From Cycas panzhihuaensis (taxonomy: Eukaryota > Plantae > Cycadophyta), in contig CM041465.1 in assembly GCA_023213395.1 (NCBI GenBank), forward strand, positions 41,857,741 to 41,921,740: 64,000 nt of DNA, read 5' to 3'. Below, piece by piece: positions 22,164 to 59,340 of this stretch. Position 1 is the stretch's first letter; each line of letters opens with the position of its first letter. Made by a program: the position numbers and the translations under genes. The notes beneath the pieces were generated by a model, which was not told the origin of the DNA, did not search any database, and was given only the letters and a program-made list of their open reading frames with translations.

Positions 22164-25100
22164 TATTAGAAAATAGACCTGCAATAAGATAATCACAAAC
22201 AGAAACAAACACCTCCACAGGATCGAACGGTACCCTTAAGGTACCTCAAATTGTATTAACAAAACATCCTTACAATAACATTACAATATGATACACAAAA
22301 TTGTGTATTTATAATATAAGTCATGATGGAATAGTAGGACCCACTTGCATGTGGGATAAATCAAATATACATTAATATTCTAGCACTCCCCCTTAATGTG
22401 CATTTGGGTCATTTGTATTTGCAACGCTTTGTCCTTGGAAATGTTTTGAGAATGATGTCTTTAACCTGATTCTTGTCTTCAATCTTGTAGTAATGTCTTT
22501 GCTGCAGAATGATGTCTTCATCTTAATTTTCATCTTCAATTGCATCGATGCCTTTGTAAGATGATATCCTTAGCTTGATTTCTGTCTTCAATCCTGTAGT
22601 GATGATGTTAATCTAGCAGCTCTAGCAAGTGCAAATCATGATTCTTCATTGTGCCTGGTCTAGTCTTATTATGATGTAGATCCTGTAAATAACCATCTTC
22701 AATCACAACTTGCCTGTCATCATTCTCTTATATAAACTCTTGAACACTATGTACAATAGTGATTTCTTCAACCTTAGGAGTGGAGTCTTGATTAACTTAC
22801 ATACTCTTTGAGCTTGAAACAATGCTCAAAGAAGAAATATCATTCAAACTTGAATCAATACTCAAAGTAGGAATATCATCAATATAAGACTCATCCTTTA
22901 TAGAACCATCAGATTCATATTCAATCTCCCTTGAAATCAATTCATCACTTTCAATGTCTTCATCTGTAATCTCATCAATGCATTCAACAGTAGAAGTTTT
23001 GTGAGTACTCAAACATTCTTCATCTTGACATGCTATCTCATCAATGTTGATGATACTTTCTTCATTTGTTGTACCTGTACCATAACTAGCCTTAATTACT
23101 TTTTCAATCATTCGTTGTATTTCTTCAGAAGTTTATTCAAATACTTCCCTTAGAAAATCCCAAGATTCTTTAGCATTACTTTTATGTAGAATCATAGGAA
23201 TAACAAAATAGAATTTGGAAGGAAGATCAATATCATTGAATGTAACATAAATCATAATGAATGCTTTCCTATCTTTCTTCTCAAGCATTTCCTTTTCTTC
23301 TCCATCATTAGGGATATTATATTCATCAGTAACAATCTTCCATAAACCTCTAGCTATGAATAGACATCTCATTTTAATTATCCAAAAGAAGTAGTCTTCA
23401 CCATTGCACTTAGGTACTGGAAGAAATGAATCCCTTAAGTAATATTCATTTGTTTCATGAGCATATATAACCACATCATTATCCTCCATGATTGTAAATG
23501 CCATTTTCTAACACCATGTCCCTTTTCCAATCAACAAATTCACCCATCAATCTCAACAAACTTTCTCATGTCTCATGTCCCTCATATCACTGACTTCATT
23601 ATCACATCATTGCCTTATGCATCTCACATGTTACCAAATAGTCACATACAAAGAATATCTAAAGCACTTTCTTCACCATAGAATCAAAGCTTATACCACA
23701 TACATCTCACAAGAATCATGTATACCTCATGTCACCATTAAATCACCAAGACACATCACACTTCACTTAATTACCCAAAACACAACTCATGCCATTACAC
23801 CACTCAATAATTTTGCTTCCCTCCAACTCAAGTATCTTCAACAAAAGAAACCCATCCTTCTTTGCCCATTCAATCAATTAGAACACATCATCAAACATAC
23901 TTGATCTCATCCTTAACACACCTAACAATTTCTCGATCTTATCATGTAACCTCACATGTAATAAGCACCTCATTGCCTCAAATCGCTATCTTTCTTGCCC
24001 TCAAATTAGCTTTGTTATACCCATCAAGTCCTTTCACGTAAATCACATTCCACGGAGTACTTAATTGTCATATTCCATCTAATTCATTCATGCAAATACA
24101 TGTACTATCACTTCATTACCATACTATGCCATTGTCACAATAGCTCTCTCATACAAACACATGTAAGAAAGTACTCAAACTATCATTAAACAATCACCAT
24201 CATGCAACTCAAATCACTAATAGAGTGCCAAATATATTTACATCAATATAACTTAATGTCATCTCATATTGTAACAATACTCTCCCATATGCCACATATG
24301 TAAGAGAGCCTCAAACAATCACTTCATTACCATTGCCCCATTCATGTCACCATATAAATACGAAACCCTTAAATTCTTAAAAACTTATTTCTGAAAAAAT
24401 ATTATAGCTCAAAAATATATAAAATATAGATAAAAATGATGGCCTCTGAAATATGATTCCAACAATTTAGATGAAATTGAATTTTGATATCTAGATCAAA
24501 AGTTATGCTCCTTTTAAGAATTTCACAATTAGGGTTTCTAAGGGCTGTAATAGTACCTTCTAATAAACTGATAATAACCTTTTATTCAGAACTCTGATGA
24601 ACCTCAAACCACTTCCATTAGAAAGAGAATTTAAAAACATACAGAATCAAAAAAAAATTGAGGTTATTTGGATACCTGTAGCTAAAGTTATGGCTCTTTA
24701 AAGTTGAGGTTGCAGATCTATCCCAAAAATACGGCGACAGAAAAAATGCAGGCCAAAATTAATTTTGCTATAATTTTCACGCTTTCACCCCAAAATCTAT
24801 AGTGCAACCACTCAAATTTTATAGAATGAGCTATTTCGTCTCAATTTTGCTATTACTTTTTAGAAATTTCAACGTTATGGCACCTCCCAAATCACTGCTC
24901 TAATATCGAACAAAAACACCTCTCTCAACCCAGGTGCTCTGATACCATGTTGGAAAATAGACCTGCAATAAGATAATCACAAACAGAAATAAACACCTCC
25001 ATAGGATCGAACGGTACCTTTAAGGTACCTCAAATTGTATTAACAAAACATCCTTACAACAACATTACAATATGACACACAAAATTGTGTATTTATAATA

Positions 25101-28100: not shown

Positions 28101-29306
28101 GCCTATGACCTTGAGGTGGATTAAATGGATGTGAAGACTGTATGTCTTTACAGTGACCTCGAGGAATAAATTTATATGTTGCAGCTTGAAGGGTTTGAAG
28201 TTGCAGAAAAGGAGGATATAGTGTGTAGGTTAAAGAAGTCATTATACGGCTTGAAACAATCACCAAAGATGTGGTATCAAAAGTTTGATTCACATATATT
28301 GGCGGATGGCTTTGTGTGCAGCAAAGTAGATCATTGTATTTATTATAAGCAAGTTGGTGATCATTTTGTTATTCTAGCTTTATATGTTGATGACATACTT
28401 TTAGTTAGTAACAATAAAAGAATGAACCAACTTATGAAAGACTAATTGGAATCTCACTTTGAGATTAAGGACTTTGGTGCTGCACATTTTATTTTAGACA
28501 TTGAGATTAAAAGGCATAGGAGAAATAAGAAGATTTAGCTTAGCCAAAGATAATACATTAAAATAATATTACAACGATTTAGGTTACAAGATAGTAAACT
28601 GAAAGAAAATAATGTGATGGAGAGCATGGCAGAACATAAACAAATAATCACAGATCAATACATCATTATTACATAAACAAGAATCATTTGTATTCAATTC
28701 ATTGTTGTGAAAAGAGTATTATAAATGTCTAAAATGAAGGTGATGTCTAAAGACACCAAGGTTGCACAGCCCTCAGAATATATAGTTTGGGGAAGGAGGG
28801 AAACTCCTCAACCCCTGAAATTTAAATAACAATAAAATATAACTTAACTTAAATCAAATTAATCTTACCTTATACTTACCTACATATATAAGTATCCACA
28901 TGTGTAAATTGATAGTAGTGAGGTGTGAACTCCTGGTTGGAAGGTGGGAGTGGGATGATGAGCATTAACCCCAACATTCTCCCCCTTAATGGTCATCACG
29001 AACAATGTCTTCTCTTTAATCTTGTGGAATTTATACTTGAAAAAAACTTTAAAAATTTGTCTTGTAGCTTGATCTTTATTAACTTGCTTCAAATTTATTG
29101 CAATGTGTGTCTTCTCCATTGAATGGTGTAAAAATACTGTAAGTAAATTAAGCTTGATTCAAATGTGTATGTGTAGCTGTAATTTTGACTTTATCAACTA
29201 GAACTTTAAGAAAACTTTAAACTTAAATTTTGTCTTCTGAAAACTTTATGTTGTGAACAACTATCATATCATCATATCTCTCCCCCTTAAATGGAGGATC
29301 AAGTTT

Positions 29307-29702
29307 TTATGCAATAAGATGATCATACATTTGACTTGAATCTTCCTTGGTCTTTTCATTAGAATCCACCTGTTCTGTCACATGTCTCACATACTCAATA
29401 AAATCAATATTAAATTCATTGAGGGTATCTCTCCTATAAGTAGAAATCAATATGTCCCACATGGATTTGGAAGTTGTTAATTCGTAAACTCTAGAAAACA
29501 CTTCATCATCTATAGTACAAAATAATAAAGCTAACGCTTCATTGTATTTTTTAATGTTTTCCTTAATACTAACATCATAGTCATCTTGTACGTATTTCTA
29601 AAGATTATATGTAATAAAATAATTTTGCATAGTTTGATACCATAGTGAAAAATTATAGCCATCAAATATAGGAAATTGTACTTGATCAAGATTGATTGCC
29701 AT
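29307..29702 (-). pseudogene. truncated copia-type gag
   Basis: MAINLDQVQFPIFDGYNFSLWYQTM...SKSMWDILISTY, with one internal stop. Confidence 0.8.
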
Positions 29703-31170
29703 TTTATCAAGAACTTTAGTACATAAAAAAAAATTTGATTTTACTAAGTTAAAAAACTTAATAAATGATAAACTTATAAGATATAATTTTAGATAAAATT
29801 TGAAATAAAAATAAATATATGAGTAAATTCAAATATAACTAAGATCCTTTTAATTATGTAAATCTTAATTAAAACATTGGTGATAAAAAATAAAGAAGTC
29901 TTAACCTTTTATTTTTTAAATGTTGGGGTATGTCAAATGCTCAAATTTAGTAGCTTCAAAGTTGTACTAAACAAAGTTAGAATAGCCTGAAATTATACCA
30001 AAGTGAAGATCAATGAAAAAACTATTCAATGGAACTGACCGTTTTGAAAATGGTTTCCTACAATTCAATATTTGAGTGAACAAAGGAGACAATCCTCTTT
30101 TTTAGGCTTAACAGGAGTATGGGGCTCAAAATATTATAAAAATTCTAATAAAATACTTATAAAATATTACAAAATGATCAATTATAGTTTAGAAGACTAC
30201 TCAATATATTTTTTAATTAAAAACTTTGAGAAATAATATATAAAAATTGTGTAATAATGATAGATTAGAGACTATGATATACCTCTACTTTAATAGATTT
30301 GAAAATCTAAAAAAATACTTTAAAACTTATAAATAATAATGTCAGTTCAAAGAGGAGTGAGTCAGCTTCCAAATGAAACTAGCAAAACTGAATTCTGATG
30401 TAAAATAAAAAAGTTATAATGAAAATGACAATAAGTACTTTTATGGTAAAATGTTTAAAAAGTGTTAAAGTGTCACTTTCAGTGATTAAAATAATGATTA
30501 AAATAAATTTTAAAAAATAAAATAAATAAATGGTAATAAAGTTTATAAACAATAGATAACTGCAGAATAGATATGGGTGGAAAATAGTTTCTCGGTGATA
30601 AAATATAATCTGATGAAAAATAGATTTTATGAAAATAGTTTTAAAATGTTCTAAAAATCAATGCCTAGCTTTGGATTGACTAAAACTTGGTCAAATCAGC
30701 TCCAAATAGGTCATATGACCAGCCAAAATCATACCTCAAAAAATTCTAGATGCAATGGAATATGTTCTGTCAGAAACTGATAACCCAGTCAAAAGTTATG
30801 GCAAAAATTTGCTAAGTACCCTATGTGAAATAAAAAAATTTAAAAAAATAAAAGGAAAAAATTATTTATAAAAGTTGTTGGCCCCTTTTGATAAGCTATG
30901 GTCACGTGTTGGGTACATAGGGCTAGGGGATAAATGTTAAAAGGGGCTTATATCCCTTAAACCTTAGAATTGAAAGTATATATAATTAAATTTAATTTTT
31001 AAATAAACTTTAGAAAGAAATATTTAAAAATTAAATATTTTGAATCAAAAAGAGATTGTCGCTTCATTGCCGCCATCTGAGATGTCGTTGTTGCTGCACC
31101 TATCACCACCACAACCATGGAGACGCCGCTGTTATAGGGGGGAACAGAGAATGACCGCTCAGATGAACTT

Positions 31171-31231
31171 GGGGTGGTGGCGCAGTTAGTTAACACATAG
31201 GTCTCATAGCTTACTGAGCGATCCTGAGGTC
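31171..31231 (+). pseudogene. 5' two-thirds of an intron-containing elongator tRNA-Met(CAU), decayed
   Basis: ggggtggtggcgcagttagttaacacataggtctCATa[gcttactgagcg]atcctgaggtc matches the recalled plant tRNA-Met(e) GGGGTGGTGGCGCAGTTGGCTAGCGCGTAGGTCTCATA-intron-ATCCTGAGGTC. T-arm and 3' acceptor strand are absent. Confidence 0.85.
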
Positions 31232-31650
31232 TTCATCACATGGTGCAATATTCTTAAACGTGTACCAAATAGTGCCCTATGGCTTCTCAAGTTCCCTACA
31301 GCTGGAGAGAGTAGATTGTGGGCATTTGTTGCTGCATAGGGTGTCTAACCTGATCAAATTATATTCACAAATATTGCTGCAAAGAATGAGCATATAGGGT
31401 GGCTAATCTTTTCCTTGATACACCATTATGCAATGCTCATACCACAGGCACTGATGTTCTCTGGGTTGGTCTACATGTTGTAGCTCTTCCTCTAGAGAAG
31501 ATGGCTACACGAGTAGTTGGATCTATTTGTTTGGCCACAAGTCTTAGAGAAGAGATGGTTGCCAGCAATATGCAAGAGTATGAGGGGAAGGTTGTTAGTC
31601 TTACTCAATGCCCTGCAAGGCTTCAAGCACTTACAACCAAACTTAGAATG
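31220..31650 (+). pseudogene. SEC: Uninterrupted fragment of O-GlcNAc transferase (SECRET AGENT-type, GT41 C-terminal domain)
   Basis: [26 protein letters not shown]...PDQIIFT...LFLDTPLCNAHTTGTDVLW...LPLEKMATRV. Two stops and a frameshifting deletion near 31398. Confidence 0.9.
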
Positions 31651-31653
31651 TAA

Positions 31654-31936
31654 TGTCAAGTGAATGGGAGGCTACAAGGCTTGAGGCATTGCTTTGGATG
31701 TCATTTCTTTTGGAAAGGCATCGCACAGAGGTTGCAAGAGGAGATTTTATTATGTTTTTCAACCAAATATTTGATGCACTATGTAAACTCTTAGTAGATT
31801 TAGATGCTAATATGTAGAGCGTTGTACATCTTTTTTATCGCCTTGTTAAGGATATTGTTACAAAAAGTGATAAGTTCATCATTGAAGAATTCATACCATT
31901 GCTAAGGGAACAAATGAACGTTCTCAATCCTTATGT
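31654..31936 (+). pseudogene. VAC14: VAC14 fragment with exon order scrambled
   Basis: SSEWEATRLEALLWMSFLLERHRTE | VARGDFIMFFNQIFDALCKL..DANM*S..HL..RLVKDIVT.SD.F.IEEFIPLLREQMNVLNPY. Confidence 0.85.
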
Positions 31937-32178
31937 AATATAGTTGAGGATCCAGCACGGACTGTAGAATATACCATTGACAGAACTGTTATAAGCATCC
32001 CCAGTATAAGCATACCTGTGGACACAGCTTTCACATGATTATGAAGACCATTGCATTCATAGTCCCTAGGTTCACTTGAAAGCCCATTGTAGCACAAGTA
32101 CGTGCAGTATAGAGATATTATAGAAGCTGGCAAAAGACTGTCATTCACCTTAGGATGGAGTGCAATGACTGCAAATGT
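31936..32178 (-). pseudogene. Serine incorporator (SERINC/TMS family) fragment
   Basis: FAVIALHPKVNDSLLPASIISLYCTYLCYNGLSSEPRDYECNGLH...VYSTVRAGSST. Confidence 0.88.
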
Positions 32179-32254
32179 AATGTAATACTTAAATGTAATG
32201 TAATGCTTGATGTAATGTAATGTAATGTTTGAATGTAATGTAATGCTTGATGTG
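32174..32254. repeat. TGTAA-based minisatellite, about four (A)ATGTAATGTAATGCTTG units
   Basis: Read directly from the sequence. Confidence 0.9.
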
Positions 32255-32310
32255 TATGGGAAAATGGGTAATTCTTGGAACAGAGTTTTATTGTTATTTG
32301 TAAAGATAAA

Positions 32311-32616
32311 AGAGCAAGGGATAATGTGAAGTTTTTAACAACTATTAAGTGTTATTTCAAGATAATTTCTAGTGAACCTTTGCTAAGGGTTCTTGAAATA
32401 ATAAGTCCTATGATGAATGCTCTTTGTATGGTTTGGATTCTTTCATATTACTATTCAGATGATTCTAACATGGGCTATCTTATAGAGCGTATAGCACATC
32501 AGATTGTAGAAAGAGTCTCAGAAGAGATAAATCTCAAGATTTTATTCAAGATGCTTGCTAATGATGCTGAATGTAAATTAAATATGGCAAAAAATGTATT
32601 GGACTCTTGGAGGTTT
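32311..32616 (+). pseudogene. Axonemal dynein heavy chain N-terminal tail fragment (DNAH10/inner-arm I1-alpha-like)
   Basis: ARDNVKFLTTI..YFK...PMMNALCMVWILS.YYSDDSNMGYLIERIAHQIVERV...INLKILFK resembles the recalled DNAH10 EAKDNVRFLST...AMMSALRMVWIISRHY..DERM..LMERIAWEIAERV. Confidence 0.8.
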
Positions 32617-33119
32617 TAAAAATAACTTACAACAATAAAGTGGCTTCAGTGCATAGAAACATACAATCATAGAGAAAATATAATACATAGATATTTTCTT
32701 TAGCAATTCTTTTATATATACCAAATAAATAAAATGTATATAAAAGTAGACTTTCCTATTCCCCTTTTTCTTGTTTTCTATCTACTTTTGACAAAGTAGG
32801 TTGAAGAAGTCTTGCCTGGAATATATGCTAGATCTTTTAAATATATTAATGAAAATAAATCAATAAAATAAGAAGTATATATATTTGTATCTAAAATCTT
32901 TCAAATATATTGGAGTAGATGTATCACAAAACCAAGAAATATATATGAGTTTAAATCTAAAAATAAATAAAAAAGAACTTGGTAAGCAGTTGTAGTAGAT
33001 TTGTAGCAGGTTGACTTCCAAAGATGAGATCTTCTTCCATACAAATCAAAGCTTTAAACAAATTTCTCTAATAGGCAGATCTACTATAATATATGACTTA
33101 TTGGGCTAAATATGCACTA

Positions 33120-33500
33120 AAAACTTACAGATCTAAAAAAAAACTTGAAAAAATGGTCAAATATGTGATAAAATATATAGAGATAAAGAATATATATAAC
33201 AGATTTAAAAAAAACTTGAATAAATATTATAGATCTAAAATAAATATTACAGATCTAAAGTAAATATTACTGATATGTAGGCAATATTACAGATCTGAAA
33301 CAAATATTACAGATATAAACAAAATAAACTAGAAAAATGGTAAAATATTTGATAAAATAAGCAGATCTGAAGAATATATAGCACATCTGAAGAAAACTTT
33401 GAATAAATATTGTTTGCAACTGTGCTTCTGCACAGATCTAAAAAAAGTATTAGATAAATAAACAAAATATGCTTGAAAAATGTCAAATATTTGATAAAAA
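33120..33500. repeat. Degenerate tandem repeats (aaatattacagatctaaa, ~20 bp) in the element leader
   Basis: Repeated (C)AGATCT units; clearest at 33220-33320. Confidence 0.7.
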
Positions 33501-36500
33501 TATATAAAATTTATTGATAAAACCTCTTATAGAGTGATAGAAACTTGATATTTGTTGTTTATAGCTATGCACCTACACAAATCTGAAGAAAATCTAAAAT
33601 ATATTTGTTATATCACAAGTAAAACTCAAGAATAATCAAATATGATAAAAAATAAAAGAAACTTGCTAATAAACTTTGCAGAAAATAAATATGACCAATA
33701 TTTACTAACTTGTGAGTAGATCTACTTTAAATACTAATAAATCTTCTATCTTCTTCAAAAAACTTCAAATGGAGATGTAACAGCCCAACAATTTCTACTC
33801 TAATATCAAATGAAGGAAAATAATGTGATAGAGAACAAGGTAGAACATAAACAAATAATCATAGATCAATACATCATTATTACATAAACAAGAATCCTTT
33901 GTATTCAATCCATTATTGTGAAGAGAGTATTACAAATGTCCAAAATCAAGGCAGTGTCTAAAGACACCAGGGTTGCACACCCCTCAAAATATATAGTTTG
34001 AAGGAAGAGGGAAACTCCTTAATCCCTAAAATTTAAATAACAATAAAATATAAGTTAACTCAAATTAACTTAAATCAAATCAAACTTACCTTATACTTAC
34101 ATATACATGCGAGCACCCACATATGTAAATTGATGAGAGTGAGGTGTGCACTCCTAGTTGAAAGGTAGGAGTGGGGTGATGAGCATTAACCCCAACATAA
34201 ACCAATTAATGTTCCTCTTCTTGCTAGTTTAAAATTATCAGTTGAATAATGCCCAAAGACTCACCAAGAAGTTGAAGACATGGAATTTATCCCTTATACT
34301 AGTATTATTGGTAGCCTGATGTATATGATGGTTTATACTCAACCAGATATTACCCATGCAGTGGGAGTAATTAACAGGTATATGTCAAATCCAGGCAGGG
34401 AGAATTAAATGGCTGTGAAAAGGATTTTTAGATATCTGTGAGGTACATCAGACTATGGAATTTTCTATCAAGGAGATCCGATGGAGAGTAGAATAGTAAA
34501 TCCAAGAGGTTTTATTGATGTTGATTAGACTAGAGATCTTGACAGCAAAAGATCTACAAGCGGATATGTTTTTACCCTTTGTGATGGCGCAGTTAGTTGG
34601 ATGAGTAAAAGACAACAAGTTGTGATACTTTCTAGCACAGAAGAAGAGTATATGGTAGCTACTTATATGTACAAAAGAAGTGGTTTGGTTAGAGAGATTA
34701 TACACAGATATTGACTTTAAGCAGGATGTTGTGAGGATAGATCGCAATAGTCAAAGTGCAATCTACTTAGTAAAGAACCCTATTTTTTATACCCGGTCAA
34801 AGCATATTAATGTGTAGTTCCATTTTGTAAGGGAAATGGTTCAAGATCACAAGGTGGACTTGCAGAAGATTGCTACACAAGAGAATGTTACAAACTCATT
34901 GACTAAGATTGTTGGCACAGAAAAATTTAAATGGTATAGAATTGCAATGAGTCTTTGTGATTTTGATATTCAATAGTTGTGTATGCAGGTTTTCTTATAA
35001 AGTGTTCAACAAGTGGGAGATTGTTAAATATGTTGAACACTTTGCAAGTGTTACATAGGTATAGGCGTTACACCCAAACCCTTTGTGGGATCTCAGGGCC
35101 CGTTGTAGGGCCCCCGACTGGGGGGTTTGGGGGGGTAGTAGCCCTCGAGGTGGGGGTTTGAGGATGGGAGCTCCTAAGAAAAAACAATTGGTGTCTTATA
35201 GGGGTCTTTGTCAACCCAATAGTTTATGCCCATTGTATTGTAAAACCGCAAGGCGGTATCTTGTAATGTTATGTCTATATATTCTTATGTGACGGCACAT
35301 GTAATATATGATACGAAGATGATGGTGGGATCATGGATGAGTCGAGAAGAAGAGTTGGAGTTCATCTCTGTTATTCTTTAGTTATTTCTCAGATTAATAA
35401 AAGGTTTATGCTTAGACCTGAATCTCTTAGTGTTCTTTGTTGAGTATTTGATTTGTTTATGTTATTTGTTCTTTGCATGGTTTAGAGTTCTATTATCACA
35501 TTGCTTCTTGGTTATATTTTCTCTTCACATTTCTCCTCTTATTTGGATCAGGTCTAGAATTCCTATCTATGAATAAGACCTAAAGGTACTTCCCTACTTA
35601 AATTCTAAGAAAAATAACTATCCATAAGCCTGAAGGCATATTATTTTGGTATCAAAGCCAAGTTGTCTATCTACAATATCTAATTACTTAAAGATTTTAG
35701 GGTTTGCATAATTATATGAATAGTCGTACAACCTCCATGTGGAAATATACAAACCAAAAAAAAAAGTGCTTAGAATTTGATAAAAATTTAACAAAATGTA
35801 TGCAATCATACAGACACCATTATATCCCAAAGGACCATCATGAAAATCTCACTTGAAAAGTAAAAAAATAAAGAAAAACTTGGATGTTAGTTTGAGGCTT
35901 CAACTATAATTTTCTCTAAAATTTCTCAAGCAATCTCTTTAAAACTAGTCTTAATCTCTTCTTTTTTACTAGATCTATCTTTAAGTATAAATTTGTTATA
36001 TTAAATTTTATGATTCCTTTCATACGAGCAAAAAGTGTTTTCAAATCCTAGTCACCCATTTCTATTTTGGAGTCATTTTCTCGAAAACCAGACATCCAAT
36101 TAAAAAACTGACTACAAATTTAGATATGCAACTAAAAAGCTTTGATTTGAGCCTTTTTCTTTTTTAATCACACAATTCCATATAACTATATAACCATGCA
36201 AAATCATACCTTCAAATAGAAATTTAATTTTTTTAATAATTTTTTTTCTCTTCTAAATTTCTAGTCAAAAAAATAAAAACTCTTTATGACTTGAGATACA
36301 TATATAGGAAGGGGAATATATAGCTATATCTAGTCATAAATCCTTCATTAGCAAGTATACCTCGCCTAAATATTTCTTATAAAATGAGCATATTGTTATA
36401 AGCCCTCTTTATAAGTAAGTGTATCCCTATAAGCAAGCGTATCTCAAATATACCATGTCTCATGATCAAGAGGATCAGTCCCAACTAGACATCACCAAAC

Positions 36501-41868: not shown

Positions 41869-44800
41869 ATCTCATCGGTTGCAAGGATGTTTTGAATGTT
41901 GTTAATACAATTTAAGGTACTTTAAGGGTATTGTCTGATCCTGAAGTGGTTTGTTTCTATTTTGTGAATATTATTGTAATATAGGTTTGTTTTTTCAATA
42001 TGGTATTAGAGAAAGGTCGAGAGAGGTCTATCGAATTGGTTGGTGAAACCCTAATTCTATTAGCGTGTGAGGAGGTGGCTCGTTCTTTATTTGATAATGC
42101 CACTAAGCTTGCCAAGTCCTAGAATTAAGTGGAGGTGATTTTGATGTTTATTGAGTAATTAAGAGGTGTTTGAAGCCACCCGTGTATGGAGAGAATCCAT
42201 ACACCTATTTGCCAGCCTTATGTTGCCAATAGGAGAGTGCATAGAACCTACAGAGCCATAAAAGGAGAGTGCAAAGAACTTGCAAAGTTGTGGAATGAAT
42301 AAATTACAATCAAATAAAATTACAATCAAATATTCAAGGTATACTCATTGTTTTCCAATATATTAATAACCCACTTAATATTCTAGGGTTTGATTGAATA
42401 CATTCATCTACCCAGTAATAAATATATTGATCACTACTGTATTTAATCATGCACACATTAATATGGGTGATAATCTCTAAATGACATCGTGATGCCCAAC
42501 GTAATATTGTTACCTTCGTCTGCAATTTATGTATTTATGTCAGTCGCGTGATAAATTTATGCCTGCATATAGTATTTATTCACTAGCCAACGGTTGATAA
42601 TTTTATCACCGTAAGATATATCAATACATTGATATACTCCAATGTTTTGTAGTCGCTCGTTTGTTGGTTTATGATGGCAGTTGTACTGTTTTACAGTCGC
42701 CCATGCATGATGTGTTAGTAGTAACTGCATCATCGTTTGATATTGCAGCCAAACATCTGTGTGATAATCATTTCCAACAGCAAGTCTCTATATATGCGTT
42801 CACACATTCTACACGCTGCCTGCATCTTATTTGTTCGACCATCATTTTTCGCCACCGCGATTTATTGTATCTTCACCTGCGTTTGCGTTTGAGTGACTAT
42901 GCATCTGATTCGTTGGTGAGACACCCCTCTGTATATGGTATGCAAGTATTTTATACAGTCGTATCTATTCTATTCACCTCTAATTTATTACAAATCACAG
43001 TAGTTTATCATTTACCCTTGCATGATGTATTATATGCAATGTCACCCACACATTAAGTTATTATCACTTGCTAATAATTTTGGTTGCCCATGTCTGCGTG
43101 ATGAGATATTTACAGCCGCTCCTGTGCATATTTCTATTCAGAAACTACATATATATTTGCATATCATTTGCCATCGTCCTCTGAGTGTGGATATATTCAC
43201 CGTTGTTTTTATATTTGTAGTGGTTGTCTTTCAATATTGGTGTCACCCGTCAATAATGATCTCTGCGTCTTTATATTTTATTACCTGTGAATTTATTTTG
43301 CCTCGTGTGTTGTTGTCTTAATATGCATTTATTTGGATATATATTTTTTGGGCATTTGATAATTTATATAAAGTAACGTTTGTTATATTTACGACAGCCT
43401 GTTTATAATGTCGCCCAATGCCTTTGATATGAATCATTTGATTTAATATTGCATTGCACCCTTTTCTATCAAGTTGTCATTTTTGAGGTTAATATATATT
43501 TGCCTAATGTTAGCATTATTTTTATCCTGATACCCTTTTGTGATATAAAATGAGACCTTATATTTATGAATTACCCATCAAATGATCTTGATCATATGTA
43601 ATTTGATTTTCATCTTTTGTAAGTTTGAAATAGTATTTGATACGAGTAGACATATATCATGTATCATATGATGTGTTATGGAGATTCATAATATGAGACA
43701 TTTATAAGGCATCAATGGCAATGTCTACTATATAGTGTGTTGGTAACCTAGTTCTCTCTTATATGTGATTACGTAAGAGAGTAAGTTGGAGGCATGAGAG
43801 ATGGGTAATATGAGGCTCTCTAGCATGCGATTGCATGAGAGAGTATTTTGGCAATGTGAGGTGACATTAAAACATGCTGATGTGAATGTTCTGGCACTCT
43901 TAATTGGTGTCATGTTGATTGGCGATTTGATCTGAAGATATTGCATTAAGCACGCTTCAATTATGGGTGAAAGTAGGCGATATGAGATGATGTTTGATGC
44001 ACTTTGCATATATCCATATAAAAAATCTATTGGGCAAAGAAGGGCATAAAAAGAGCATACTTGATAGCATGGTCTAATTGACTAAATAGACAAAGAAGGA
44101 TGAGTTTTGTTGAAGATACTTGAGCTGTAGGAAAGCAAACTTTGTTGAGTGCTATAGTGGCATGAGTTGTGTTTTGGGCAATTAAGTGAAGTGTGATGTA
44201 TTTTGGCGATTTAATGGTGACGTGAGGTGTGCATGATTTTTGTGAGATGTATATGGTATAGACATTGATTTGATGGTGAAATAAGTGTTTGAGATACTCG
44301 TTGTATGACTATTTGGCAATATGAAAGATGCATAAGGCAATGATGTGACGATGAAGTCAGTGACGTGAGGGATATAAGACATGAGAAAGTTTGTTGAGAT
44401 TGATTAATGGGCGAATTACCAATGTTATGTGAGTTTGTTGATTAAAAAATGGACATATTGTTTGAAGATACACTTTTAATCATGGAGGAAAATGATGTGG
44501 TTATATATGTTCATGAAAGAAATAAATATTACTTAAGGGATTCACTTCTTCTGACACCTAAGTGTAATGAAGCAAACTATTTCTTTTGGACAATTAAAAT
44601 GAGATGTTTTTTTATAGCTAGAGGTCTGTGGAGACTTGTTATTGATGGATACGATATTCCTAAGGATGAAGAAGAAAAGGAAATGCTTGAGAAGAAAGAC
44701 AAGTATTTATCATGATTCTTACTGCATTAAACAAGACTAATCTTCCTTCTGCATATCATTTTGTCATTCCTAAGATTCAACATGTAAGTACTACCAATAA

Positions 44801-45778
44801 AGCTTGAGATTTTTTAAAGGATGTATTTGAATAAACTCTTGAAAAGATACAATGAATAATTAAAAAGGCAAATAAGATCAGTGATAGTTATGATATAGGT
44901 AAAACGAATGAAGAGAGTATTATCAACACTGATGAAATAATATGTGAAGATGAAAAATGTATTAGTACTAATGAAATTTCTACTAAATGTAAAAAAACTA
45001 TGGTTGAATGTATTAATGACACTACAACTACTATTGAAGACATTGAGAGCGATGGATAAATAAAGGTTTTATTTAGATGACACTATTATTTCAAGGGAAA
45101 TTGAATATGAATCTGATGGTCCTATAAAATATGAGTCTTATATTGATGATATTCCTACTTTCAGTATTGATTCAAGTTCAAAGAGTATATAAGCCAATGA
45201 AGATTCCGCTCGAAACGTTACTGTTGTATATGGTGATCAAGAATTTATACAGAATAATAATGACAAGCAAGTTGTATTTGAAGATGGTCACTTACAGGAT
45301 CTACATCAAAATCAAGTTAAACCAAGCTTAATGAAGAATCAATGTTTGCACTTGCTAGAGTTGTTGCAGCAAAGATATCAATGTAGAATTGAAGATGGAA
45401 AATCAAATTGAAGACACCATTCTACAACAAAGACATCACTACAAGATTGAAGACAATGATCAAGTTGAAGATATCATCTTCAAGACATTTCTAAGGACAA
45501 GGCATTATAAATATAAATGACCCAAATGTGCATTAAGGAGAAATGTTAGAATATTAGTAATGCATATTTGTTTTGTCCCACATATAATTGGGTCCCACAC
45601 TCACTATCATATCGTGTATTATAAATACACATGTAATATATCATATGATCTCATCGGTTGTAAAGATGTTTTGAATGATGTTAATACAATTTGAGGTACT
45701 TTAAGAAAATTGTTCGATCTTGGAGGTGTTTTTGATCTGCTTTGTGATTATTATCTTGTGTAGGTTAGTTTTTCAACG
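41765..45778 (+). mobile_element. Second member of the TR-GAG-like family, inserted in the gypsy integrase
   Basis: LTRs 41765-42000 and 45544-45778; PBS tggtattagag at 42001; TSD atacc/gtacc. gag 44449-45200 is homologous to 22797-23504. (TA)n expansion at 41841-41868 in the 5' LTR. Confidence 0.9.
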
Positions 45779-52856: not shown

Positions 52857-55800
52857 ATCCTCAGCAAAGAATTAAATCATTAATGCATCGCATTTAATAT
52901 GTTCAGCTTGTCATTCAGTCAGAAAGGTTATCATACAGTCAAAAAGGTATATGCTTTGACACAAATACCCCTGGCAACGAATACATCAAAAAATATATGC
53001 CTATGAATCATGGAGCCCATGGAAATGAAAACTTGAGAAAACGTGATGAATCAGAATGCCAAAACAGAAGAAAATGAATTGAAAAAATCGTTAACTTCAC
53101 ACACTAAAGCGACCTACTGTGGAGCTTCTATAGGAAAATCATACGGAAAAATCAACCTTTCAATTGCAATTCCAGTTAAAATGAAGAGTCCTATTAGCGA
53201 GACGCCGGAGACACTGTAAAATGACAAGCAATGCTAGCTTGAGTGCTTGGTGCAGGAACCACATTAGCTGGTGCTAAGGATATCACTTAAAGGGTACTTA
53301 AGAACTTAATTAATAGTTAGGTATACAGACGACATATCCTACATGAAACACCTATGTGTCCTACATACAACAAACTAAAATTTGTATAAATATGTAAGTC
53401 ATTCTTTATAGAAATCAATAAAGGGATAAGTTATTCATTCTTCCTCTTACCTAACTTAAGTCTAAAGTTCCTATCTATGAACAAAACCTAAAGATACTTC
53501 CCTACTTGAATTCTAAGAAAAAGAACTATCCACAAGTCTGAAAGCACATCATCGTGACTACTTTTATACCTCTATGTTAAATTGTGATTGTTTTTTTGCA
53601 TGATTGTCATGGCAGATTTTTATTACAAATACATAATACTACTTAACAAGGTTATTGATTGTTGAAAGATCATAACTCAAGGGATGCAGCATTCCATAGC
53701 ATGCAATTGTTAGAAATGAACAAGTGATCATGATCACACTGTGTTTGAAGTGAGAGCCAAGTCATTGTGTTGTAGTCTTTCCTCGCATATGGTTGTATGT
53801 GCAAATGATCTTGATTATTAATGCTCTAACATGATTAACTTTGTGTGTTTTGATTGTTGTGTATTCCAATATCATGACTGATGCCATGAAAAGTGTGGCA
53901 TACAAATTGTACAACCTGGCACGAAAGCACTTCAAGAATACAGCATACCATCATGGGCATTCCATTGAAATGAATCTCATAAAACATTCATTCGGTCTTT
54001 GTATAGTCTTTCCTTATATATGGTTGTATGTGCAAATGATCTTGATTATTAATGCTCTAACATGGTTAACTTTGTGTGTTTTGATTGTTGTGCATTCCAA
54101 TATCATGATTGATGGCATGAAAATTTTGACATACAAATTGTACAACCCGGCACTGAAGCACTTCAAGAATATAGCATACCATCATGGGCATTCCATTGAA
54201 ATGAATCTCATAAAACATTCATTCACATCATAGGCTACTTATGCATAGTTATGTACATCCTTCAACCATGGTGCGGGCATTATCATTGTCAATAGTCTGG
54301 GATTGATTATTTTGGTTAATCAACCATAGAACAAATGTGCATATTCAACGTAGTCCTATATGATTAATACTTTTGTTGAGGAAAATTGTTTTAGGGTGCT
54401 TGTTTGAGATCTACAATGATATGCATACACACACACACACATATATTGTAAAAAGGTTGTAACTTATAAAAAAAAGTATTGATGAAAAAGTTACAACTTG
54501 AATTGGCTTTGTGATTGGACTTCAATGCTTGAATAATCGCATTTATGTTATATGGATAATCTTATTTATATTATATAGGTGGACACATCCTTCAAATCAT
54601 GGAAAAAGGAACGCTTTCAGAGACATTTTTCAGGGTAAAATATTAGCATTCCCAAATAAAATATTCTCTACAGCTCATTATTTTATTTAATTTTAAAAAC
54701 TGGGATCAACACCAAGTTGATGAAACACAAGAATTACATGATATGATACAAACTTGTAGATCTCCATCCTTTTTTTGAGATTTTTATTTAACAAAACTGT
54801 TGACCCATGTATCCATATTAAGTAAAAGCAGTAGTTTATTCAATGACATCAAGTTGGATTTCGTAACCATACTTCATCCTCAAGAAAGAATTAAATTATT
54901 AATGCATCGCATTTAATATGTTCACTTGTCATTCGATCGAGAAAGGTTATCATACAACAAAAAGGTATATGCTTTGACACAAATACCCACAACGAATACA
55001 TCAAAAAATATATGCCTATGAATCATGGAGCCCATGGAAATGAAAACTTGAGAAAGCGTGATGAATCGAATGCCAAAAGCGAAGAAAATGAATTGAAAAA
55101 TCGTTAACTTCACACACTAAAGCGACCTGGGTGGAGCTTTATAGGAAAATCATACGGAAAAATCAACCTTTCAATTGCAATTCCAGTTAAAATGAAGAGT
55201 CCTATTAGCGAGACGACAGAGACATCGTAAAATGACAAGCAATGCTAGCTTGAGTGCTTGGTGCGGGAACCACATTAGGCGGTGCTCAGGATATCACTTA
55301 AAGGGTACTTAAGAACTTAATTAATAGTTAGGTATACAGACGACATATCCTACATGAAACACCTATGTGTCCTACATACAACAAACTAAAATTTGTATAA
55401 ATATGTAAGTCATTCTTTATAGAAATCAATAAAGGGATAAGTTATTCATTCTTCCTCTTACCTAACTTAAGTCTAAAATTTCTATCTATGAACAAAACCT
55501 AAAGATACTTCCCTGCTTGAATTCTAAGAAAAAGAACTATCCACAAGTCTGAAAGCACATCATCGTGACTACTTTTATACCTCTATGTTAAATTGTGATT
55601 GTTTTTTTGCATGATTGTCATGGCGATTTTATTACAAATACATAATACTACTTAACAAGGTTATTGATTGTTGAAAGGTCATAACTCAAGGGATGCACCA
55701 TTCCATAGCATGCAATTGTTGGAAATGAACAAGTAATCATGATCACACTGTGTTTGAAGTGAGAGCCAAGTCATTGTGTTGTAGTCTTTCCTCGCATATG

Positions 55801-58800
55801 GTTGTATGTGCAAATGATCTTGATTATTAATGCTCTAACATGATTAACTTTGTGTGTTTTGATTGTTGTGTATTCCAATGTCATGACTGATGCCATGAAA
55901 AGTGTGGCATACAAATTGTACAACCCGGCACAAAAGCACTTCAAGAATACAGCATACCATCATGGGCATTCCATTGAAATGAATCTCATAAAACATTCAT
56001 TCGTCTTTGTATAGTCTTTCCTTATATATGGTTGTATGTGCAAATGATCTTGATTATTAATGCTCTAACATGGTTAACTTTGTGTGTTTTGATTGTTGTG
56101 CATTCCAATATCATGATTGATGGCATGAAAAGTGTGACATACAAATTGTACAACCCGTCAAGCACTTCAAGAATATAGCATACCATCATGGGCATTCCAT
56201 TGAAATGAATCTCATAAAACATTCATTCACATCATAGGCTACTTATGCATAGTTATGTACATCCTTCAACCATGGTGCGGGCATTATCATTGTCAATAGT
56301 CTCGGGATTGATTATTTTGGTTAATCAACCATAGAACAAATGTGCATATTCAACGTAGTCCTATATGATTAATACTTTTGTTGAGGAAAATTGTTTTAGG
56401 GTGCTTGTTTGAGATCTACAATGATATGCATACACACACACACACATATATTGTAAAAAGGTTGTAACTTATAAAAAAGTATTGATGAAAAAGTTACAAC
56501 TTGAATTGGCTTTGTGATTGGACTTCAATGCTTGAATAATCGCATTTATGTTATATGGATAATCTTATTTATATTATATAGGTGGACACATCCTTCAAAT
56601 CATGGAAAAAGGAACGCTTTCAGAGACATTTTTCAGGGTAAAATATTAGCATTCCCAAATAAAATATTCTCTACAGCTCATTATTTTATTTAATTTTAAA
56701 AACTGGGATCAGCACCAAGTTGATGAAACACAAGAATTACATGATATGATACAAACTTGTAGATCTCCATCCTTTTTTTGAGATTTTTATTTAACAAAAC
56801 TGTTATGCTGACCCATGTATCCATATTAAGTAAAAGCAGGTAGTTTATTCAATGCACATCAAGTTGGATTTCGAACCATACTTCATCCTCAAAAAGAATT
56901 AAATTATTAATGCATCGCATTTAATATGTTCAGCTTGTCATTCGATCGAGAAAGGTTATCATACGATCAAAAGGTATATGCTTTGACACAAATACCCCTG
57001 GCAACGAATACATCAAAAAATATATGCCTATGAATCATGGAGCCCATGGAAATGAAAACTTGAGAAAAGCGTGATGAATCGAATGCCAAAGCGGAAGAAA
57101 ATGAATTGAAAAAATCGTTAACTTCACACACTAAAGCAGCCTATTTGGTGGAGCTTTATAGGAAAATCATACAGAAAAATCAACCTTTCAATTGCAATTC
57201 AGTTAAAATGAAGAGTCCTATTAGCGAGACGACAGAGACATCAGAAATGACAAGCAATGCTAGCTTGAGTGCTTGGTGCAGGAACCACATTAGCTGGTGC
57301 TCAGGATATCACTTAAAGGGTACTTAAGAACTTAATTAATAGTTAGGTATACAGACGACATATCCTACATGAAACACCTATGTGTCCTACATACAACAAA
57401 CTAAAATTTGTATAAATATGTAAGTCATTCTTTATAGAAATCAATAAAGGGATAAGTTATTCATTCTTCCTCTTACCTAACTTAAGTCTAAAATTCCTAT
57501 CTATGAACAAAACCTAAAGATACTTCCCTGCTTGAATTCTAAGAAAAAGAACTATCCACAAGTCTGAAAGCACATCATCGTGACTACTTTTATACCTCTA
57601 TGTTAAATTGTGATTGTTTTTTTGCATGATTGTCATGGCAGATTTTTATTACAAATACATAATACTACTTAACAAGGTTATTGATTGTTGAAAGGTCATA
57701 ACTCAAGGGATGCACCATTCCATAGCATGCAATTGTTGGAAATGAACAAGTAATCATGATCACACTGTGTTTGAAGTGAGAGCCAAGTCATTGTGTTGTA
57801 GTCTTTCCTCGCATATGGTTGTATGTGCAAATGATCTTGATTATTAATGCTCTAACATGATTAACTTTGTGTGTTTTGATTGTTGTGTATTCCAATGTCA
57901 TGACTGATGCCATGAAAAGTGTGGCATACAAATTGTACAACCCGGCACGAAAGCACTTCAAGAATACAGCATACCATCATGGGCATTCCATTGAAATGAA
58001 TCTCATAAAACATTCATTCAGTGCTGTATAGTCTTTCCTTATATATGGTTGTATGTGCAAATGATCTTGATTATTAATGCTCTAACATGGTTAACTTTGT
58101 GTGTTTTGATTGTTGTGCATTCCAATATCATGATTGATGGCATGAAAAGTGTGACATACAAATTGTACAACCCGTCACTGAAGCACTTCAAGAATATAGC
58201 ATACCATCATGGGCATTCCATTGAAATGAATCTCATAAAACATTCATTCACATCATAGGCTACTTATGCATAGTTATGTACATCCTTCAACCATGGTGCG
58301 GGCATTATCATTGTCAATAGTCTGGGATTGATTATTTTGGTTAATCAACCATAGAACAAATGTGCATATTCAACATAGTCCTATATGATTAATACTTTTG
58401 TTGAGGAAAATTGTTTTAGGGTGCTTGTTTGAGATCTACAATGATATGCATACACACACACACACATATATTGTAAAAAGGTTGTAACTTATAAAAAAAA
58501 GTATTGATGAAAAGGTTACAACTTGAATTGGCTTTGTGATTGGACTTCAATGCTTGAATAATCGCATTTATGTTATATGGATAATCTTATTTATATTATA
58601 TAGGTGGACACATCCTTCAAATCATGGAAAAAGGAACGCTTTCAGAGACATTTTTCAGGGTAAAATATTAGCATTCCCAAATAAAATATTCTCTACAGCT
58701 CATTATTTTATTTAATTTTAAAAACTGGGATCAGCACCAAGTTGATGAAACACAAGAATTACATGATATGATACAAACTTGTAGATCTCCATCCTTTTTT

Positions 58801-59340
58801 TGAGATTTTTATTTAACAAAACTGTTATGCTGACCCATGTATCCATATTAAGTAAAACAGGGTAGTTTATTCAATGCAGCATCAAGTTGGATTTCAGAAC
58901 CATACTTCATCCTCAGCAAAGAATTAAATTATTAATGCATCGCATTTAATATGTTCAGCTTGTCATTCAGTCAGAAAGGTTATCATACAGTCAAAAAGGT
59001 ATATGCTTTGACACAAATACCCCTGGCAACGAATACATCAAAAAATATATGCCTATGAATCATGGAGCCCATGGAAATGAAAACTTGAGAAAACGTGATG
59101 AATCAGAATGCCAAAACAGAAGAAAATGAATTGAAAAAATCGTTAACTTCACACACTAAAGCAGCCCTGCTGGTGGAGCTTTTATAGGAAAATCATACAG
59201 AAAAATCAACCTTTCAATTGCAATTCCAGATTAAAATGAAGAGTCCTATTAGCAGAGACGCTGACAGAGACACTGTAAAATGACAAGCAATGCTAGCTTG
59301 AGTGCTTGGTGCAGGAACCACATTAGCTGGTGCTGAGGAT
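52857..59340. repeat. ~2.02 kb tandem array (3 units plus the original gene segment): GDPDL 3' end, gypsy LTR half and flank
   Basis: Units start at 52857, 54876, 56885 and 58909. Each holds an internal ~230-bp tandem duplication (e.g. 53770-54225) and a short (CA)n tract. Confidence 0.92.
53552..54300 (+). pseudogene. Possible MULE/MuDR transposase remnant (SWIM-like region), split by the gypsy insertion (left part ~21330-21612)
   Basis: Weak motifs only: IPLC*IV...VMADFY, HTVFEVR, GCMCK, ATYA..VHP. Many stops. Confidence 0.3.

Follow-up and report, generated by a model that had tools for sequence, protein, structure and literature searches.

A fragment of intron-bearing elongator tRNA-Met joined to a spliced SEC mRNA fragment inside a dead Copia-type LTR element of Cycas panzhihuaensis

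tRNA-derived SINEs carry a tRNA head fused to unrelated 3' sequence. LTR-mediated retroposition is known from maize Bs1 and from LTR-flanked retrocopies in Drosophila and mouse, for which capture of several genes with microsimilarity has been described (PMC5131818), and the capture of gene fragments by LTR elements of gymnosperms is described as common (PMC13477047). For retroviruses, the account in PMC12220202 describes both the spurious-primer model of Colicelli and Goff for a tRNA-Gly insert in MMLV, where DNA was copied back through a primer that had not been removed, and HIV tRNA inserts of 63-67 nt, those from the Berkhout laboratory in HIV-1 measuring 63-65 nt. Murine leukemia virus, moreover, is described as packaging unspliced pre-tRNAs, cleaved halves and leader-bearing forms, so that unspliced pre-tRNAs do reach the site of reverse transcription, as shown for a mammalian retrovirus (PMC4378196); the available text of PMC7197481 holds nothing on the packaging of pre-tRNAs by plant retrotransposon particles. 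Within the open-licence literature, a scope that leaves most subscription journals outside the search, we found no report of an intron-bearing tRNA captured in a plant LTR element.

The locus described here lies in a stretch of 64,000 nucleotides of Cycas panzhihuaensis DNA (the window; assembly GCA_023213395.1, contig CM041465.1, coordinates counted from its first letter). Like tRNA-derived SINEs it places a tRNA head on unrelated sequence, but unlike them it has no B box, no tail and no sign of independent spread. In common with Bs1-like retrocopies it is non-autonomous, with partial spliced pieces of several host genes between LTRs and short shared sequence or short inserts at the joints; unlike them, its cargo sits upstream of gag, for the most part in antisense to the element, and includes an intron-bearing tRNA, whereas the word tRNA is absent from the main text of PMC5131818. 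With the retroviral tRNA inserts it shares about 60 nt of non-cognate tRNA in retroelement DNA at a recombination joint, but the insert described in PMC12220202 is a mature tRNA with a CCA end, while here we see the 5' part plus the intron, without T-arm or CCA, and, unlike those inserts, a piece that would have paired through positions 38-48 and has become fixed in a plant germ line. Chimeras of tRNA and LINE-1 likewise join a truncated 5' tRNA to another retro-copied RNA, often antisense to the element; as described in bioRxiv 10.1101/2025.02.02.635956 they have target-site duplications and the hallmarks of LINEs, and their tRNA halves measure about 37 nt, as against the 61 nt with intron found here in an LTR element. 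The features of the locus, from left to right, are as follows.

28600-28976, minus strand: 3' LTR of a decayed, non-autonomous Copia-type element
about 28977-28989, minus strand: purine tract adjoining the 3' LTR
29424-29630, minus strand: Copia-type gag remnant (PF14223, E 3.5e-8)
31040-31153, no strand assigned: repeat backbone beside the cargo, matched by contigs 82-84% identical that end at 31151 (X2 record 15) and 31153 (X5 record 9)
31154-31170, no strand assigned: 17 nt of uncertain origin, the upper limit for a tRNA 5' leader or flank
31171-31208, plus strand: 5' exon of elongator tRNA-Met from the mature 5' end, with 5 differences from intact genes in 31170-31210
31205-31207, plus strand: anticodon CAT
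31209-31220, plus strand: retained tRNA intron, 12 nt, after position 37; intact genes that bear the intron match across it, with 3-4 differences
31221-31231, plus strand: part of the tRNA 3' exon, 11 nt, positions 38-48
31220-31231, plus strand: tRNA/SEC overlap, the last intron base plus tRNA positions 38-48, with likely 10 of 12 letters shared and the tRNA letters kept
31220-31647, plus strand: spliced SEC (O-GlcNAc transferase) mRNA fragment, with stops and a 10-nt deletion near 31396
31648-31655, plus strand: 8-nt filler of AATGT repeat type between SEC and VAC14
31656-31936, plus strand: VAC14 cargo in scrambled order (PF12755)
31937-32181, minus strand: SERINC fragment (PF03348, E 3.9e-20), boundaries approximate, opposite to the other cargo
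32174-32253, plus strand: degenerate AATGT array at the SERINC/dynein joint
32311-32613, plus strand: dynein heavy chain fragment (PF08385, E 5.7e-19)
33798-33808, minus strand: primer-binding site with 2 mismatches, 2 nt inside the LTR edge
33811-34197, minus strand: 5' LTR

The element at 28600-34197 is a decayed Copia-type LTR element carrying host cargo, and it is dead. Its LTRs end in TG...CA and are identical at 331 of 377 aligned columns (K2P 0.137), and a 5-nt target-site duplication is found in identical form at 28595-28599 and 34198-34202. The primer-binding site, which we take to be of the initiator-Met type and exact copies of whose motif occur at 24937, 25314 and 38619, lies by the right LTR and the purine tract by the left one, and the element is therefore on the minus strand. 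It has been inserted into another Copia element, the reverse transcriptase of which (PF07727) is found to its left. No pol was found in its own interior: 18 frame translations of the non-cargo part gave no other credible Pfam family, and the remaining interior yielded a Protoglobin match only, below that family's cut-off. The cargo block sits between the primer-binding site and gag and runs, left to right, through the tRNA-Met fragment, SEC, VAC14, SERINC (on the other strand), the AATGT array and dynein, all of it antisense to the element except SERINC. The locus thus displays the Bs1-like features of cargo between paired LTRs with target-site duplication, primer-binding site and purine tract, of cargo made of spliced partial mRNA (shown as spliced for SEC), and of joints with an overlap (tRNA/SEC, about 10 of 12) or a short insert (8 nt between SEC and VAC14). 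A second purine tract is seen on the minus strand at about 29275-29290, directly after the gag remnant and some 300 nt before the LTR-adjacent one. The window at large is AT-rich and repeat-rich, with about 25-40% GC per kb; several nested LTR-like pairs occupy 21.7-42 kb, related elements in inverted orientation lie at 22189-23885 and 44070-45751 (73% identity over 1.8 kb), and in 52857-59340 a 2.0-kb unit is repeated about three times in tandem, the copies being about 97% identical and each containing a 231-nt internal duplication.

The left end of the cargo is formed by the tRNA piece, the positions of which are numbered by standard tRNA structure. Contigs with intact tRNA genes align over 31171-31231 and then run on into the T-arm and acceptor stem (X2 records 16 and 17; X5 record 13), their alignment with the window ending at exactly 31231. 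These contigs and the sequence itself bear out the original prediction that the piece is a tRNA-Met with its 12-nt intron unspliced. An intron after position 37 marks the elongator tRNA-Met of flowering plants and moss, as described in PMC3531208, and the Arabidopsis elongator tRNA-Met genes are described as bearing introns at the same place (PMC13728533); by this placement the tRNA is the elongator and not the initiator, again as had been proposed. Parts that a functional gene would have are absent, in that the cloverleaf is incomplete, stops at position 48 and has neither B box nor acceptor stem; ARAGORN called no tRNA gene, Rfam at E up to 1 missed the fragment, and folding of 31154-31231 gave a z of -0.32, that is, no special stability. 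We propose no present function, and none is evident at the junction. The decay mutations of the tRNA piece resemble those of the neighboring sequence. Its parent locus was not found, the closest among the matches listed having 3 differences beyond the 5' exon.

How much tRNA flank accompanies this piece bears directly on its source. In organisms B and C, repeat contigs follow the window as far as 31151 or 31153 and then depart, so that the flank amounts to at most 17 nt. A long genomic flank upstream had been named as the mark of DNA capture, and none is present beyond these 17 nt, the parent locus not being among the matches listed. In all five listed cases (X1 records 2 and 3; X5 records 11, 12 and 13), tRNA pieces from intact or decayed loci match the window upstream over no more than 4 nt, and the 5' flanks of the listed tRNA loci are AT-rich, unlike 31154-31170; the assignment of 31165-31170 to a 5' leader was not borne out. 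The stretch 31153-31170 instead looks like 31199-31223 of the tRNA itself, inverted and gapped, with a block of 9 matches in 10 (shuffle p 0.008-0.028 over four scorings, for a likeness noticed post hoc, after folding). As a hint only, 31154-31170 may thus be an inverted copy of the adjoining anticodon and intron region, as by fold-back synthesis, and if so there would be no leader at all and the source would have been 5'-trimmed yet unspliced. A flank of at most 17 nt in itself favors capture of RNA over capture of DNA. An unseen tRNA locus could, however, supply the 17 nt as flank, the two large DNA runs (X1, X5) having been covered by about half, and with no parent locus among the matches listed, a pre-tRNA and tRNA-gene DNA are both candidate sources. 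We also considered 31055-31170 as the 5' end of another mRNA, with an ATG in good context, and dropped it: the stretch is a diverged repeat, found at 82-84% in contigs of at least three organisms. The three RNA-type runs (X11, X14, X15) have no RNA contigs over it.

To the right of the tRNA, the SEC fragment (PF13844, E 1e-19 and 1.5e-17) has its nearest named proteins in Ginkgo, Pinus and Taxus. In all three RNA-type runs (X11, X14, X15), SEC mRNA contigs begin their alignment at exactly 31220, upstream of which they continue as SEC coding sequence, and the match ends at 31647 where the compared stretch reached it (X11, X15). Genomic contigs from two organisms (X1, X2) have an intron acceptor at 31242/31243, and the window, only 23 nt from the joint, has no intron there, which confirms the derivation of SEC from spliced mRNA. 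The fragment differs from the mRNA at 29 of 428 nt (6.8%), in addition to the 10-nt deletion in the window, a divergence that is an upper bound as the mRNAs (organisms E, G and H) may come from relatives rather than from the window's species. Since 6.8% is half of the LTR divergence of 0.137, the capture of SEC would be about as old as this LTR insertion. Several other SEC copies occur in the DNA runs X1 and X5 over 31220-31505; at least one is clearly intronless and some continue upstream as SEC, and this lineage has apparently produced SEC retrocopies repeatedly. The letters that the other intronless copies of X1 and X5 have in common with the window are confined to mutation-prone sites, two of them in the case of X1, whose copies also share letters among themselves. 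Among the matches listed for X1 and X5 there is no sister copy with a longer SEC and the same downstream cargo.

With the tRNA match extending to 31231 and the SEC match starting at 31220, the two are indeed fused through an overlap at 31220-31231. The original prediction had further taken this block to be an exact 12-mer that serves at once as tRNA and as the SEC codons D-P-E-V. Its location and its role in guiding the joint by homology hold, but the exact identity probably does not, the shared letters more likely numbering 10 of 12; nor was it confirmed that SEC itself encodes D-P-E-V across such a 12-mer, as its mRNA differs at 2 places in 31220-31241 and SEC proteins have Ile for Val. Over 31220-31289, the mRNA contigs of X11 and X14 have 2 differences apiece, with none listed in 31250-31289, and both must fall in 31220-31241 because the pieces of the parent gene show none in 31242-31289. 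Ile occupies the position of the window's Val in 167 of the 170 SEC proteins that carry the motif (195 examined), Ginkgo and Pinus SEC read D-P-D-I-F-I-T-W, exactly two residues off the window (D-I vs. E-V), and one SEC copy of X5 (record 16) aligns only from 31230. From these difference counts and the protein conservation, and not from letters directly read, we infer mismatches at 31229 and probably 31228, which would arrange the block as 8 exact, 2 mismatched and 2 exact letters. Positions 31228-31229 are those of the variable-loop bases G45 and G46 in the tRNA, whose letters the window has retained. Were the 12-mer exact and both differences confined to the following 10 nt, a Val allele and an event of roughly 10% would have to be assumed. 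For any given joint, at least 10 of 12 in-register matches would arise by chance with a probability of about 4e-5 to 8e-5, and because such a match is this improbable by chance we take homology to have guided the tRNA/SEC joint.

The remaining cargo and joints provide further insights into the kind of molecules that were gathered. The SEC/VAC14 joint is bridged by X2 record 19 (207 nt, 3 differences). Within VAC14, a downstream exon (about residues 347-372) is joined at 31730/31731 to an upstream exon (about residues 121-190), an order opposite to the natural one in all 104 proteins that carry both motifs; the first piece ends where the genomic contig of a paralogue begins an intron, the second starts at a break in 5 of 114 gene models, and two X1 contigs have the same order with 13 nt less. 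The joint at 31730/31731 looks like a back-splice joint, and the VAC14 piece is likely a copied circular RNA, which would support the view that the cargo came from a pool of RNA; this joint is possibly of more interest than that of the tRNA. Pseudogenes derived from circular RNAs are described for mammals in the review PMC6965350. For SERINC, a search at a strict cut-off returned nothing. The motif AATGTAATG occurs 8 times in the window, always at two cargo joints, and ATGTAAT marks three cargo joints (31648, 31933, and 32175 onward, including VAC14/SERINC); these letters may have arisen by stutter from the SERINC end or from a backbone repeat. The fillers and the one inverted piece keep end joining of cDNA pieces in play. 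Dynein in land plants is tied to flagellated sperm, and the dynein fragment hints at the male germ line as the place where the cargo was collected. Together with the closeness of SEC to Ginkgo and the conifers, it would fit a gymnosperm whose sperm are flagellated.

On balance, we consider it probable that a shortened, unspliced pre-tRNA base-paired through its 3' end with antisense SEC, at about 10 of 12 positions, and that this end, acting as a spurious primer, was then extended, through steps that are deduced from one joint. A pre-tRNA ending at position 48 would have been present where the element was being copied, and its end would have annealed to antisense SEC, either as SEC cDNA or in the element's own RNA, in which SEC is antisense. 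The annealed tRNA would have primed synthesis into SEC, and the overlap would hold tRNA letters because it was the tRNA end that primed; the opposite strand would then have been copied through the attached primer to the tRNA 5' end, as normally happens at the primer-binding site, and the copy would have rejoined the element backbone near 31153. The same polarity, though with lower likelihood, would result if the pre-tRNA had first been copied into DNA and this copy had annealed during end joining, which would leave the same letters. The duplex of sense tRNA and antisense SEC can be extended from either end: cDNA extended on the tRNA leaves SEC letters, whereas the tRNA end extended on SEC leaves tRNA letters. 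Two features expected of a spurious primer are found here, namely primer orientation, the tRNA being sense on the strand that is primed from the primer-binding site, and tRNA letters at the paired 3' end, as far as these letters are deduced; the element's own RNA would, moreover, display antisense SEC as a false binding site. An RNA source is favored by the start of the tRNA match at the mature 5' end, and the neighboring cargo is RNA-derived, SEC lacking its intron and the VAC14 joint lying on exon boundaries. Against priming, a DNA template would leave the intron in place just as well, and only 2 terminal bases pair beyond the mismatches; a cut at tRNA position 48 has no known case in the literature we consulted.

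The original prediction had proposed the reverse course, a homology-guided template switch from an mRNA onto an intron-containing pre-tRNA. Homology guidance, spliced SEC, an intron-bearing elongator and the lack of a long flank all stand; the direction was probably the opposite, and the block is likely imperfect with the tRNA letters kept. We accordingly rate as quite unlikely that reverse transcriptase, moving from 3' to 5' along SEC mRNA, changed templates in the shared block and went on copying an unspliced pre-tRNA as far as the 5' end of the latter, even though four of the five cargo pieces have one orientation and can be read as a single leftward copying path, the tRNA piece stops at the tRNA 5' end, and switching guided by microsimilarity is the standard model for LTR retrocopies, with 25 of 29 Drosophila joints and a median of 6 bp as described in PMC5131818. 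The nascent cDNA would have kept SEC letters in the paired block, and the window has tRNA letters at the deduced mismatches, so that tRNA-end priming fits better; under a switch one must assume either that it relied on 2 nt while a further 8 nt agree by coincidence (about 2e-5 to 3e-5), or that the true parent allele had the 12-mer exactly. Capture of DNA, where a break in the SEC-bearing element is repaired by copying a stretch of a tRNA-Met gene whose 3' end anneals to SEC by microhomology, would explain both the intron and the retained tRNA letters without any pre-tRNA, and the ATGTAAT fillers (31648, 31933, and 32175 onward), the possible fold-back insert and the one inverted piece look like end-joining repair, for which short inverted templated insertions are described in PMC11724301. 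We nevertheless judge it unlikely, as copying began no more than 17 nt from the mature 5' end, the point at which an RNA stops, the AT-rich region upstream of tRNA genes is absent, tRNA-Met genes make up a minute share of a repeat-rich plant genome, and the other cargo is RNA-derived.

Two more accounts remain to be weighed against spurious priming by the tRNA end. A chimera of tRNA head and mRNA pieces made by a LINE-type reverse transcriptase and inserted into the LTR element, or a prior ligation of tRNA to mRNA, is highly improbable: primate tRNA/LINE-1 chimeras with truncated tRNAs are described in bioRxiv 10.1101/2025.02.02.635956, and most of the cargo is antisense to the LTR element, but the right end of the cargo shows no poly(A) tail, no duplication of at least 40 nt flanking the cargo was noticed, and the SEC piece is an internal fragment, while an overlap in register is not expected from ligation. 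That the joint is an assembly artefact or a chance juxtaposition we regard as the remotest reading of all. Among the matches listed, no contig of X1 or X2 spans the joint at high identity; X5 record 10, however, from organism C, bridges it over 31138-31289, covering the upstream piece, the tRNA and SEC; it has 11 differences, and 19 letters are lacking at the joint. This bridging makes an artefact unlikely and shows, on sequence grounds, that the arrangement is real and old. This contig has the ancestral letter at 31188 and 31197 and changes of its own elsewhere; it differs from the window by 8% and may represent a second insertion or paralogue, or else a distant ortholog. Two X1 contigs share the scrambled VAC14 order. 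An artefact is also at odds with a tRNA piece that has decayed like its neighbors, and with paired LTRs and a target-site duplication.

LTR-mediated capture is known, and the joint with an intron-bearing tRNA is a variant of it, a single dead fossil with mechanistic value. Mismatches within a shared block reveal which strand was extended, and here, unlike in Bs1-like retrocopies, the retained letters suggest priming rather than template switching. The letters kept in imperfect overlaps would thus provide a simple genome-wide test that sets template switching against priming or end joining in gene capture by LTR elements. If the source was a pre-tRNA, the joint is also sequence evidence that immature tRNAs reach, and can prime, the reverse transcription of plant retrotransposons. 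A wider reading, which we hold to be possible but rather doubtful, combines an end-trimmed, unspliced pre-tRNA acting as spurious primer on antisense cargo, a circular VAC14 RNA copied across its circle joint, and dynein mRNA, and would make the element a fossil sample of the RNA in a retrotransposon particle of the seed-plant germ line, taken from sperm-forming cells. If true, the particles of plant Copia elements would, like murine leukemia virus, take up nascent and non-canonical RNAs of the host, and the giant genomes of gymnosperms would hold a minable record of such packaging.
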